Source: Escherichia coli (GTDB lineage Bacteria; Pseudomonadota; Gammaproteobacteria; Enterobacterales; Enterobacteriaceae). Taken from it: DNA of 64,000 nt. The position numbers are program-made. The stretch lies in assembly GCF_965641715.1 (NCBI RefSeq), contig NZ_OZ282453.1. The stretch is one strand, 5' to 3'. Below, piece by piece: positions 1 to 6,000 of this stretch. The first letter of the stretch is position 1, and every line of letters starts with the position of its first letter.

Positions 1-3000
1 ATGGGTACAGGCCGGAGCATGGAAAGAAGTTGGATATTCTGAGGTTGATTTGAGCACAGCAGAAACGTATCCCTGCCCTGTACCCTGTGGGGAAATGACT
101 TATATCTTGCGGGTGATAGGTGATTCAATGATTGATGAGTACCGCCCGGGAGACATGATTTTTGTCGATCCTGAAGTACCTGCCTGCCACGGTGACGACG
201 TTATTGCATTGATGCACGATACAGGTGAAACCACCTTCAAAAGGTTGATAGAAGATGGGACACAGCGTTATCTCAAAGCGTTAAACCCAAACTGGCCTGA
301 GCCTTACATTAAGATCAACGGTAATTGCTCTATAATTGGAACTGTGATTTTCTCAGGAAAACCAAGAAGATACAAAATCAAAGCCTAATCAATGTTTATG
401 AACCTGCTTCGGCAGGTTTTTTTATACTTGACAATGTACCTATGAGATACATAATGTACCCAAGAGAAACAACAAACAGGCAGGACGCCCACGAAGTAGC
501 CGCCTGGGGCATATGAAGTCCAGGATGATTCGTTAGCAACAAAAAAGCGCCCTACAGGACGCTTAGCTCTTTAACAATCTGGATATCCACAACAGTAGTA
601 ATCTACAGATTGCCGTTAAGTTTTCTGGACAACTCCTCAATGGATGGAGGCGATACGTAATCCGGATTTTTATTCATCAGAAACTTATTTTCACAGTGGA
701 GGCACCTGCTTTTATGAAAAAGCTCATCTTCGCTAACCGGGAATGGTTGAAGTATCGATACTATCTTTTGTCCAAAACATTTTGGGCAAAGATGCATGGT
801 TATGCTGCCACCGTTCACGATTACCTCCTTCGAGTATACAAAAGTACCCGACTCAAGTTGGTTAAGGATATAGCCTTCCGTCTGAGCCTCAAAGTTTTCG
901 AATTCTGCAATTTTAGCTTTGAGAGAAGCATTTATTTCTTGATAAGAGCCCACCAGTTCAACGAGAGACACGCATTCGCGCTGAATAGACGCAAGCTTTG
1001 AGTTCAGCTCACCAATAGCCGCATTTACTTCAGCTTGAGTTTTTGCCTCGTTCATTAGTTTTGCAATCTGGGCTGTTTCACGAATAGCCGTCATTGCTGC
1101 CGTTAATTCAGCGATCACATTGAATACTCTTATTGTTGTTGGGGATATCCAGATTAACCGAATCCTTGTTGTTGGGGAATAACCAGGTCCACCTCGCCTG
1201 ATGTGGCTAAAAGCAGGCACATAACAGCTAAGTATTTTCAACCAGAGAGAATCCTTAGCGTTGTGGTGAATGCGGCTCAGCGCACGCGGGTTAAGGTTGA
1301 GGCTGACAGTCGACCTTCTGTGGATACCCACCCGCCTGGTGTGCAACCTTCGCCAGGCACCGGGAGGCACCCGGCACCACAACTTTATGCTGTGTGTAGT
1401 CCTGGCGGTACCAGTTTGTACCCTTGCTTCCGGCTGGTACCGTCCTTTTTTGCAAAACAGAGAAGAGCATCACCGGACGACGGGCTCATAACCCAATCCA
1501 TCCGGGCGGCTGCCACCGCAGGTGTTCTTCTCTGTTTTGTGGAGAAACCAACCGACCTTGCAGGGTCGATATGATGAGGAGCAGCAAAATGGCTAGCGAA
1601 CGCAGTACTGATGTGCAGGCATTTATCGGGGAGCTGGACGGCGGCGTATTTGAAACCAAAATCGGCGCAGTTCTCAGTGAGGTCGCTTCCGGTGTGATGA
1701 ACACGAAAACCAAAGGGAAGGTCTCACTCAATCTGGAAATCGAACCGTTTGATGAGAACCGTGTGAAAATCAAACACAAACTCTCATATGTTCGCCCAAC
1801 TAACCGCGGGAAAATTTCCGAAGAAGACACCACCGAAACGCCGATGTATGTCAATCGCGGTGGTCGCCTGACTATTCTGCAGGAAGACCAGGGACAATTA
1901 CTGACTCTTGCCGGTGAACCTGACGGAAAACTCCGCGCAGCAGGTCGTTAATATCGTTCGTAATAAACTGATTATTTATCTCATCACTGAATATCTTTAT
2001 ATAGTGAGGACTTATTATGTCTCAGAACTTAGACGCAACCGCAATTAATCAAATCCATGCCCTTATTTCTGCTCAGGGTGTTAATGAAATTATCAGTAAG
2101 ATTGGTGCCGATGCTGTGGCATTGCCTGAGAATTTCCGCATTCATGATCTGGAAAAATTTAATTTAAATCGCTTCCGTTTCCGTGGTGCACTTTCCACTG
2201 CCAGCATCGATGATTTTACCCGTTATTCTAAAGATCTTGCAGATGAAGGCACCCGCTGCTTTATCGATGCCGATAATATGCGTGCCGTCAGTGTGCTTAA
2301 CCTGGGTACTATTGATGAGCCAGGTCACGCAGATAACACTGCCACTCTCAAACTGAAAAAGACAGCACCGTTCTCTGCTCTGTTGTCTGTTAACGGCGAG
2401 CGTAACTCCCAGAAGTCACTGGCAGAATGGATCGAAGACTGGGCCGACTACCTTGTGGGCTTTGACGCTAATGGTGACGCCATTCAAGCAACAAAAGCGG
2501 CTGCGGCAGTCCGTAAAATCACGATTGAAGCAAACCAGACCGCTGATTTTGAAGATAATGACTTCAGCGGCAAACGCTCCCTGATGGAGTCTGTCGAAGC
2601 GAAGACCAAAGACATTATGCCAGTGGCATTTGAATTTAAATGCGTTCCGTTTGAAGGTCTGAAAGAACGTCCGTTTAAATTACGCCTCAGCATTATCACT
2701 GGCGATCGTCCTGTACTGGTTCTGCGCATTATTCAGCTGGAAGCGGTGCAGGAAGAAATGGCTAACGAATTTCGTGATCTGCTTGTTGAGAAATTCAAAG
2801 ACAGCAAAGTCGAAACCTTTATTGGTACTTTCACCGCCTGATTTCATTACTGCAAATGCCCCTGCGGGGGCATTTATGGAAACGTAATTAACTCAATAAT
2901 CACCGGATGGTGAGGGCTTCCTTTTACCAGAATTCAGCGCGGTGCAGTGCATATACGTGGAGAACAAAATGTCATTTATTAAAACTTTTTCCGGGAAGCA

Positions 3001-6000
3001 TTTTTATTATGACAAGATAAATAAAGACGACATCGATATTAACGATATCGCGGTTTCCCTTTCAAATATCTGTCGCTTTGCCGGTCATCTTTCGCACTTC
3101 TACAGCGTCGCCCAACATGCGGTTCTTTGCAGCCAGCTGGTGCCGCAGGAATTTGCTTTTGAAGCGTTAATGCATGATGCAACAGAAGCGTATTGCCAGG
3201 ACATTCCCGCACCACTGAAACGCCTTCTTCCTGACTATAAACGGATGGAAGAAAAAATAGACGCCGTAATCCGTGAGAAATACGGGTTACCCCCAGTTAT
3301 GAGTACACCCGTGAAATATGCCGATCTCATCATGCTGGCAACCGAACGCCGCGATCTCGGGCTTGATGATGGCTCTTTCTGGCCTGTACTGGAAGGCATC
3401 CCGGCAACAGAGATGTTCAACGTGATTCCACTGGCACCGGGTCATGCCTACGGGATGTTTATGGAACGTTTTAACGATTTATCGGAGTTACGCAAATGCG
3501 CATGAATGTTTTCGAAATGGAAGGGTTTCTTCGCGGGAAATGTGTACCGCGAGATCTGAAAGTGAACGAAACAAATGCTGAGTACCTGTTACGTAAATTC
3601 GACGCGCTTGAAGCTAAATGTGCGGCACTGGAAAACAAAATAATACCAGTGTCAGCTGAACTGCCACCAGCAAATGAAAGTGTTCTGTTATTTGATGCTA
3701 ATGGAGAAGGCTGGCTGATTGGCTGGCGTTCTCTCTGGTACACCTGGGGACAAAAAGAAACCGGAGAATGGCAGTGGACATTTCAGGTCGGGGACCTTGA
3801 AAACGTCAATATCACTCACTGGGCAGTAATGCCAAAAGCACCGGAGGCTGGAGCATAATGACCACATTTACCAATAAAGAACTGATTAAAGAAATCAAAG
3901 AACGAATCAGCAGCCTAGAGGTTCGAGACGATATTGAGCGCCGTGCTTATGAAATCGCACTCGTATCTCTGGAAGTAGAGCCAGATGAACGCGAAGCCTA
4001 TGAATTATTCATGGAAAAGCGTTTCGGTGACTTAGTAGATCGTCGGAGAGCAAAAAACGGCGATAACGAATACATGGCATGGGATATGACTCTCGGTTGG
4101 GTCGTCTGGCAGCAACGAGCTGGTATCCATTTTTCAACAATGTCACAGCAAGAGGTGAAATAATGGAGCCATACAGCCTCACACTCGATGAGGCCTGTCA
4201 TTTTCTCAAAATATCCAGACCGACTGCCATTAACTGGATACGCACAGGCCGCCTACAGGCAACACGTAAAGATCCAACCAAGTCAAAATCTCCTTACCTC
4301 ACAACACGGCAAGCTTGCATTGCGGCGCTTCAGTCTCCGCTGCATACTGTCCAGGTGAGCGCGGGTGATGGCATAACAGAGGAAAGAAAATGTCACTCTT
4401 CCGCAGAAATGAAATATGGTATGCCTCGTATTCGCTCCCGGGCGGGAAACGAATTAAGGAATCTCTTGGCACAAAGGACAAGCGGCAAGCTCAGGAGTTG
4501 CACGACAAGCGAAAAGCAGAACTCTGGCGAGTAGAAAAGCTAGGGGATTTACCTGATGTCACTTTTGAAGAGGCCTGCCTAAGATGGCTTGAGGAAAAAG
4601 CTGATAAAAAATCTCTCGATTCAGATAAAAGCCGGATTGAGTTCTGGCTTGAACATTTTGAGGGTATAAGGCTTAAAGATATCTCGGAGGCAAAGATTTA
4701 CTCTGCTGTAAGCAGAATGCATAACAGAAAGACGAAAGAAATATGGAAACAGAAAGTTCAGGCCGCCATCAGGAAAGGTAAAGAACCGCCTGTTTATGAA
4801 CCAAAGCCAGTATCAACTCAGACAAAGGCAAAGCATCTTGCCATGATAAAGGCCATTCTCCGTGCTGCAGAACGCGACTGGAAGTGGCTGGAAAAAGCGC
4901 CTGTCATCAAGATACCAGCGGTCAGAAACAAGCGAGTCAGATGGCTGGAAAAGGAGGAAGCAAAACGCCTTATTGATGAGTGCCCCGAACCACTGAAATC
5001 TGTCGTCAAGTTTGCGCTGGCAACTGGTCTGAGAAAGTCGAACATCATAAATCTGGAATGGCAACAAATCGACATGCAGCGACGAGTTGCCTGGGTGAAT
5101 CCAGAAGAGAGCAAATCAAACCGCGCCATTGGTGTGGCGCTGAACGATACCGCCTGTAAAGTGTTGCGTGATCAAATAGGCAAGCATCACAAATGGGTGT
5201 TTGTACATACCAAGGCGGCTAAGCGAGCAGATGGAACATCAACGCCTGCGGTCAGGAAGATGCGCATCGACAGCAAGACATCATGGCTATCAGCTTGTCG
5301 TCGTGCAGGAATTGAAGATTTCCGTTTCCATGACCTCAGACACACCTGGGCAAGCTGGCTGATCCAGTCAGGCGTCCCATTATCTGTGCTTCAGGAAATG
5401 GGCGGATGGGAGTCCATAGAAATGGTTCGTAGGTATGCTCACCTTGCGCCTAATCATTTGACAGAGCATGCAAGGAAAATAGACGACATTTTTGGTGATA
5501 ATGTCCCAAATATGTCCCACTGTGGAATTATGGAGGATATAAAGAAGGCGTAACTGATTGAATTGTAATGGCGCGCCCTGCAGGATTCGAACCTGCGGCC
5601 CACGACTTAGAAGGTCGTTGCTCTATCCAACTGAGCTAAGGGCGCGTTGATACCGCAATGCGGTGTAATCGCGTGAATTATACGGTCAACCCTTGCTGAG
5701 TCAATGGCTTTTGATCTGGTTGCTGAACAAGTGAACGACCGCGTCTGATTTTCTGATTTATTTCGCTATAGCGGCAAACAAACGCACACCGCTGCGCGTC
5801 TGAATCAAGAAAACCCGTATTTTCATGTATCAAAGTACAATTTACCGCCCTAACGGAAAATTGTCCGCTCCTATGAGACTGGTAACTATGAAACCAACGT
5901 CGGTGATCATTATGGATACTCATCCTATCATCAGAATGTCTATTGAAGTTCTGTTGCAAAAAAACAGTGAACTGCAGATTGTCCTGAAAACGGATGATTA

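Follow-up and report, generated by a model that had tools for sequence, protein, structure and literature searches.

The argU tRNA gene of Escherichia coli K-12 is occupied by DLP12, a 21-kb prophage remnant that contains the truncated excisionase gene xisD, an exoD pseudogene beside it, and other pseudogenes. A second K-12 prophage, CPS-53 (KplE1), occupies argW and carries yfdP, yfdQ, yfdR, yfdS, and yfdT together with the integrase IntS and the excisionase TorI. Clusters of yfdP, yfdQ, and HD-phosphatase genes are common in the early-left operons of lambdoid phages and are unlikely to be recombination genes (PMC12315714). Here, a stretch of 64,000 nucleotides from another E. coli genome (assembly GCF_965641715.1, contig NZ_OZ282453.1), hereafter the window, is compared with these systems. 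The window starts inside a prophage, of which only 5.6 kb falls within it. The best explanation of the whole is that a temperate lambdoid prophage of the DLP12 family has inserted into the 3' end of argU and that positions 1-5613 are its integrase-proximal end (probability about 0.9). This reading draws on sequence evidence, namely gene identities, intact reading frames, att repeats, near-identity to isolated phages, and mosaic joints. The arrangement is not new, as the phage type is already known and its mosaicism is ordinary for lambdoid phages.

Transfer RNA genes were called with ARAGORN and Rfam, and proteins were profiled with Pfam, PHROG, NCBIfam, and PADLOC 2.0. Phage records were compared by megablast and K-12 by blastn. 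The features that anchor the element at argU are as follows.

5569-5645, minus strand: argU, tRNA-Arg(UCU)/(tct), the integration target (ARAGORN; Rfam tRNA, 72.1 bits)
5567-5613, no strand: argU-proximal att core of 47 bp, made of the 3' 45 nt of argU plus 2 nt
4390-5553, plus strand: intD, tyrosine integrase, 387 aa (Pfam PF00589 Phage_integrase, 5.5e-47)
4163-4534, plus strand: xis, intact excisionase, 123 aa, with an N-terminal HTH_17 domain (PHROG 2907; Pfam HTH_17)

The stop codon of the 387-aa integrase and the 3' end of argU lie 15 nt apart. The integrase is identical to K-12 IntD at 384 of 387 residues, compared with 73% identity to the integrase of phage SfV and weak similarity to IntS of CPS-53. 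The 3' end of argU is present once within the window. The far end of the element was therefore taken from NZ_CP075632.1, a genome that is 99.9% identical over positions 1-5700. There, a second exact copy of the 47-bp core lies between envY and ompT, 46.4 kb distant (L004 18724-18770), and the far end of DLP12 in K-12 has these 47 bp as well, at the matching envY/ompT position (L003 24058-24104). With IntD and both att positions alike, the window locus is the DLP12 locus itself. The first-pass annotation had proposed a prophage end at argU with an adjoining integrase, an excisionase upstream, and a CI-like repressor C-terminus at the left edge. All of these are borne out by the integrase position, by the PHROG 2907 match of the gene 5' of int, and by a Peptidase_S24 domain at 2-388; the second att repeat that it had named as a check is the one found in NZ_CP075632.1. 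Its placement of the element in argU likewise stands, but its edge at 5568 does not, as the junction between phage and host lies inside argU at 5613.

Between the two cores, NZ_CP075632.1 holds an e14-type immunity region (ymfK/ymfT/ymfL), replication genes, the DLP12 lysis cassette, and lambda-like head and tail genes. Its prophage shares the late genes nohD, ylcI, ybcW, ybcV, bor, rzpD, rrrD, essD, a porin gene, and quuD with DLP12. A cI/cro immunity region, replication genes, Q, lysis genes, and head and tail genes are seen both in this genome and in phage PhiR49_1, and from that set only the cI C-terminus falls in the window. The resemblance to K-12 DLP12 thus covers the integration site, the core at both ends, IntD, and the late genes. 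The two differ in length (about 21 kb in K-12 and about 46 kb here), and in DLP12 the cI region is gone, as are the genes for head and tail. They also differ next to the integrase, where K-12 has the exoD pseudogene beside truncated xisD and the window has yfdPQRST and an intact xis.

The early genes preceding xis form a closely packed block of five open reading frames (ORFs) on the plus strand (1589-4163).

1589-1951, plus strand: yfdP, 120 aa; 118 of 119 residues identical to K-12 YfdP; PHROG 204
2017-2841, plus strand: yfdQ, 274 aa, DUF2303; 272 of 274 residues identical to K-12 YfdQ; Pfam PF10065, 2e-92
2969-3505, plus strand: yfdR, 178 aa, HD-domain protein annotated as 5'-deoxynucleotidase; 177 of 178 residues identical to K-12 YfdR; PHROG 318, 5.4e-110
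3496-3858, plus strand: yfdS-like gene, 120 aa, DUF551; 119 of 120 residues identical to K-12 YfdS; Pfam PF04448, 2.9e-4; PHROG 583
3858-4163, plus strand: yfdT, 101 aa; 99 of 101 residues identical to K-12 YfdT; PHROG 660

Each of the five proteins is 98-99.6% identical to its K-12 counterpart, and the RefSeq names in near-identical genomes agree. At the DNA level, blastn divides the stretch into two blocks. The first, of 2,650 bp (1570-4219), is 97.8% identical to CPS-53 from 19 nt 5' of yfdP to the end of ypdJ; the second (4295-5700) is 99.4% identical to DLP12 across xisD, intD, and argU. The suggestion that the block resembles the CPS-53 genes at argW, and that the prophage is a mosaic, was therefore sound: protein comparison finds the ORFs near-identical to YfdP-T, and the two blocks have different K-12 partners.

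The two homology blocks meet within about 75 nt (4219/4295), inside xis. This joint, and the fact that lambdoid prophages in one genome do recombine, would fit recent recombination within one cell, by which a DLP12 backbone received yfdPQRST from a CPS-53-type prophage at argW. The joint, however, falls within a continuous ORF that aligns over its whole length with a phage excisionase family. PHROG 2907 ('excisionase') aligns residues 1-116 with profile positions 2-117 of 117 (116 of 117 positions, 2.2e-44), and the Pfam HTH_17 match has an E-value of 7.9e-9; the TIGR01764 match (1.1e-5, 25.7 bits) is under its cutoff of 28.8. The xis start codon overlaps the yfdT stop (TAATG), coupling the two genes in translation, xis overlaps int by 145 nt, and the gene is 85% identical to the annotated xis of SfV. 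When the reading frame is extended to a start at 4079, ypdJ of CPS-53 corresponds to residues 1-46 of the long ORF and xisD of DLP12 to residues 71-144 (window 4079-4534; L002 12095-12235 for CPS-53; L003 3859-4080 for DLP12). The two K-12 genes are thus the N-terminal and C-terminal fragments of an excisionase gene that is intact in the window. As fragments of a whole xis, they argue for the continuous yfdT-xis-int arrangement as the original and for CPS-53 as the rearranged partner, which keeps the first 46 codons and then has the unrelated torI. The same yfdT-xis-int order is also found in SfV, SfIV, and the PhiR phages. Recent import from CPS-53 is accordingly improbable. Instead, yfdPQRST-xis is best viewed as the early-left module native to SfV-like lambdoid phages; K-12 holds broken pieces of this module. 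The module exchange that had been proposed holds as mosaicism but not with CPS-53 as its source.

The comparison also corrects an annotation. PGAP marks the intact xis as a truncated helix-turn-helix gene, a partial coding sequence of 22 codons (4163-4228), and the PhiR records leave xis unannotated. The truncated call in RefSeq can be corrected, and K-12 ypdJ and xisD can be explained as two halves of one gene. As a prophage end, the locus otherwise matters little, since the relation to DLP12 and CPS-53 is textbook lambdoid modularity.

Several isolated phages carry the same stretch. PhiR49_1, PhiR49_1_star, PhiR29_1, and PhiR29_2, which are 45-46 kb long and have ECOR13 or E. coli C as hosts, match positions 1-5567 at 99.4-99.6%. 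For PhiR49_1, PhiR29_1, and PhiR29_2 (PV340568, PV340556, and PV340557), the match covers 100% of the length, including two elements described below, a Rip1-like gene and a structured RNA, and no difference in arrangement was detected within 1-5567. A literature search found no publications on the PhiR49 and PhiR29 phages. Phage Kati matches 471-5568 at 98.4%, and SfV, SfIV, and VIT_AJPSC match 1-4658 at 95.8%; parts of the module occur in Stx2c phages, cdtI, 2H10, Ayreon, and mEp460. In a survey of 5,426 complete E. coli genomes, where a carrier holds at least 80% of the 5.7-kb stretch, 292 genomes qualified.

The order in SfV and SfIV is collinear with the window through cI, pL, the RNA, orf32-28 (YfdP-T, 95-100% aa identity), and an xis that overlaps int. 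The two diverge at the integrase, which in SfV is followed by gtrA, gtrB, and gtrV and in the window by argU. The SfV att site is presumably thrW. They also differ between pL and the RNA, where SfV has orf33 and an antisense small ORF and the window has the Rip1-like gene. SfV further carries C4/isrK RNAs in its rightward operon. More widely, a P1-type C4 antisense RNA, isrK, or both lie in an 'immunity region' ORF of the rightward operon in SfV, Ayreon, and ST64B (L006 783-971, L007 783-971, L008 21-97); the near-identical argU prophage (L001 1-26000) gave no C4/isrK match.

The left edge of the window contains the control region of the early-left operon.

2-388, plus strand: C-terminal autocleavage domain (Peptidase_S24) of a cI/YmfK-type repressor (Pfam PF00717, 3.9e-25; PHROG 4, 1.4e-38)
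400-419, plus strand: intrinsic terminator after cI, with an 8-bp stem followed by TTTTTATA (terminator scan)
428-455, plus strand: pL-like early-left promoter, TTGACA-16 nt-CATAAT (promoter scan, 11 of 12, the best in the region)
435-451 and 455-471, plus strand: two operator-like sites, TGTAC-N7-RWACA, overlapping the pL-like promoter (428-471 overall)

PHROG 4 bears the label 'transcriptional repressor'. The truncation of cI is due to the window edge alone, since near-identical genomes carry the complete 675-bp gene; NZ_CP075632.1 names it ymfK, 'LexA family protein'. A terminator is also annotated at the matching place 3' of cI in the records of SfV and phage Ayreon. The operator pattern occurs twice in the 64 kb, against 0.3 matches expected, and the two sites share their form with a pair of palindromes that the near-identical genome has between ymfT (cro) and ymfK (cI) (L001 19620-19700). 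Positions 428-471 are thus a candidate pL/OL region.

The functions of the early genes are best described for K-12. YfdR binds domain I of DnaA, and its nucleotide affinities are low; overexpression of yfdQ and yfdR with yfdS or yfdT blocks initiation at oriC (PMC4776307). The YfdR encoded here differs from the K-12 protein at one of 178 residues, and DnaA binding would be expected by analogy with that ortholog. A different view is that the early-left module serves mainly to remodel nucleotide pools during lytic growth, through YfdR as an HD-domain 5'-deoxynucleotidase. RefSeq and PHROG do label YfdR a 5'-deoxynucleotidase or dNMP phosphatase, and the protein is distantly related to YfbR. However, its Pfam YfbR-like match (2.9e-5) scores 24.3, just under the cutoff of 25.9, its nucleotide affinities fall far below YfbR's, and its interaction with DnaA is specific (PMC4776307). 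YfdR also matches PDB entry 2gz4 (3.7e-14). The proposal of the first-pass annotation that the HD-domain protein could alter nucleotide pools during induction is therefore possible but the weaker reading, and we consider it doubtful that this is the main role of the module. A homolog of YfdQ has a solved structure, PDB 9o7m ('YfdQ Protein', 1.2e-44), whose 36 chains point to a large assembly; a literature search found no paper on this entry. A search of the AlphaFold2 model of YfdQ (pLDDT 77.5) with Foldseek gave no match with E < 0.03 in the PDB copy searched.

Upstream of the early genes, positions 471-1189 form a slot with exchangeable content: in some phages the match to the window is confined to 1-470 and the part from 1189, whereas in others it begins at 471. 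Different small genes occupy the slot between pL/OL and the RNA, as described for SfV. In the window it contains a previously unannotated gene, which the first-pass annotation did not note.

603-1118, minus strand: Rip1-family gene, 171 aa, GTG start (profile match to PDB 9oox; PHROG 1244)

Searches for the primary paper on Rip1 (ring interacting pore 1) yielded a meeting report and a citing preprint only. As far as these sources go, Rip1 is a prophage-encoded defense protein of which 12 copies cap an 11-subunit terminase ring, suggesting a pore-based block (PMC12908700), and it is cited as a small-terminase sensor (bioRxiv 10.64898/2026.04.30.721860). The ORF at 603-1118 had no match in scans of Pfam, NCBIfam, and PADLOC 2.0, and PHROG 1244 is of unknown function; the search of PDB sequences alone identified it. 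A phmmer search gave a match to PDB 9oox_L, 'ring interacting pore 1 (Rip1)', at 2.7e-7, and a profile of 32 homologs improved this to E = 5.1e-20, with positions 5-151 aligned to residues 15-160 of 164. The alignment is nearly full length and includes both CxxC pairs. The two proteins are alike in length (171 and 164 aa), in coiled-coil and zinc-ribbon-like regions, and in being prophage-borne. They differ in that identity is only about 25%, and small-terminase sensing and pore formation are predictions for the window gene.

The gene has its own terminator (564-545, terminator scan), and the PhiR records call the ORF with a longer start. It is present in 645 of the 5,426 complete E. coli genomes (~12%), with O157:H7 among the matches listed, and is always annotated as 'hypothetical protein'. 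The ORF is probably a prophage-encoded anti-phage defense moron that lies antisense to the predicted pL transcript. Speculatively, this position suggests that induction silences the Rip1-like gene, so that the phage's own terminase would fail to trigger it. The gene can now be given a family name, which it has in none of these annotations and not in PADLOC.

The last element before the early genes, likewise absent from the first-pass annotation, is a structured RNA resembling STnc100 (RF02076)/PasD.

1230-1453, plus strand: STnc100/PasD-like RNA (Rfam RF02076, 40.3 bits, E 3e-6, below the gathering score of 47)
~1259-1381, plus strand: five-way junction of the RNA, ~125 nt
~1405-1450, plus strand: long intrinsic terminator hairpin with a U-run, following a linker

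Published copies of STnc100/PasD are treated as Hfq small RNAs (bioRxiv 10.64898/2026.05.13.724894; PMC12370729). The window RNA shares with them a closing helix, a GAAU junction, a CCGGG-AGGCA-CCCGG hairpin, a 3' terminator, and a prophage location (bioRxiv 10.64898/2026.05.13.724894). It differs in the hairpin after GAAU and in its score, which is under the gathering threshold, as are those of its phage counterparts (35-41 vs 47 bits). Sub-threshold matches in this range recur in SfV, ST64B, 118970_sal3, and phiES15. Standard Rfam annotation misses this subgroup, since its scores fall below the STnc100 threshold. The locations also differ, as the window RNA heads an early-left operon and the published copies lie near Q, lysis genes, and stx (PMC12370729; bioRxiv 10.64898/2026.05.13.724894). 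The rightward and late operons of the near-identical prophage yielded no second copy. CPS-53 lacks the RNA, its blastn homology beginning 19 nt before yfdP, as well as the pL/cI region and the Rip1-like gene.

A scan of viral contigs for the core motif recovered more than 110 loci, whose 62 distinct cores fall into about six subtypes. Minimum free energy (MFE) folds of 24 diverged representatives, each folded alone, gave a single shared five-way-junction architecture; the MFE of the window RNA is -82.5 kcal/mol (z = -2.1). Helix P1 closes the fold, which further contains a small hairpin (UGCG-GCUNAG-CGCA), the variable arm P2, and the hairpins P3 and P4. A conserved single-stranded linker, UGCUGUGUGUAGUC, follows the junction and precedes the U-run terminator. 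Covariation was assessed from per-sequence folding and anchored pair counts. Across 50 distinct sequences, P1 and P3 covary through compensatory changes, and the stem sequence of P3 is wholly different between subtypes. P4, which has 5 bp and an invariant AGGCA loop, is 100% canonical across 50 distinct sequences with three to four stem types (CCGGG/CCCGG, GGUGG/CCACC, CCUGG/CCAGG). Alignment of 22 representatives with MAFFT and RNAalifold recovered only P1, Pa, and part of P4, because it misplaced the variable arms and a one-base register shift.

In all contexts examined, the RNA lies on the strand of the repressor, between the repressor and the first early-left gene, and the cargo 3' of it varies (yfdPQR, kil-gam, or xis-int). 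BoxA-like strings (UGCUCUCUU, UGCUCUUAC, CGCUCUUUUU) stand directly 5' of P1 in several subtypes; that of the window copy, AUCCUUAGC, is weak. Because strand and position are fixed whatever the cargo, boxA-like strings lie 5', and a terminator forms the 3' end of the RNA, positions 1230-1453 could be not just a trans-acting prophage small RNA but a cis-acting leader controlling the early-left operon, a functional analog of nutL/putL, in a large lambdoid group without a recognizable N. We give this idea little credence at present. An RNA polymerase started at pL would then read through the terminator at about 1450 to reach yfdP through xis and int. No N-like antiterminator was found adjoining the RNA: SfV orf33 is not Arg-rich, YfdP is not basic, and phiES15 has kil and gam 3' of the RNA instead. 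The put RNA of HK022, a ~70-nt element of two stem-loops just downstream of pL (PMC9378689), was considered as an identity and rejected, as the core motifs are not in the HK022 genome and the window element is a ~125-nt five-way junction. In many lambdoid phages, the covarying RNA marks where the early-left operon begins, and it may have a role in early transcription.

Taken in order, the element follows the 'leftward' layout of lambda: cI, a terminator, pL and operators, the moron slot, the RNA, yfdP-T, xis, int, and att. In a lysogen, cI would keep pL shut while the Rip1-like gene runs from its own promoter, and the Rip1-like protein would protect against superinfecting phages by sensing the small-terminase ring. 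Upon SOS-induced autocleavage of the S24 repressor, pL would fire. Its transcript would cross the moron in antisense, produce the structured RNA, and have to pass the terminator of that RNA before the genes downstream could be expressed. Together with YfdS or YfdT, YfdQ and YfdR may then damp DnaA-dependent initiation by the host, and Xis and IntD would recombine the 47-bp cores to excise a genome of about 46 kb.

Several points count against an active temperate phage working in this way. The 5.6 kb in the window do not establish the completeness or inducibility of this copy. In NZ_CP075632.1, the genes for capsid, protease, portal, and large terminase are flagged as frameshifted, and an IS3 element interrupts the tail assembly gene T (L001 1183-7624; L004 36117-37767); either this prophage copy is defective or the assembly may hold indel errors. 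The effect of YfdQRST on DnaA is documented by overexpression alone, and deletions gave no phenotype (PMC4776307). The Rip1 assignment derives from sequence homology alone, at the identity of about 25% given above, and the pL start site, readthrough at ~1450, and lysogen expression of the Rip1-like gene are predictions as well. The damaged major capsid, protease, portal, and large terminase genes and the IS3 in T, together with the reduced state of DLP12 at the same site, would suit a decayed, non-inducible cryptic remnant in which the integrase-proximal genes are merely kept. Yet all genes within the stretch are intact and nearly identical to those of complete isolated phages grown on ECOR13 or E. 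coli C, the excisionase broken in K-12 is whole here, and frameshifts in a single assembly may be sequencing errors. A cryptic remnant is therefore unlikely, though a more serious contender than the alternatives considered above, and a temperate DLP12-family prophage remains the preferred reading.

To the right of argU, the window continues into an ordinary chromosomal context with fimZ and the fimbrial genes sfmF, sfmH, and sfmD (5825-10678). This neighborhood corresponds to the surroundings of argU in K-12, in reverse orientation.

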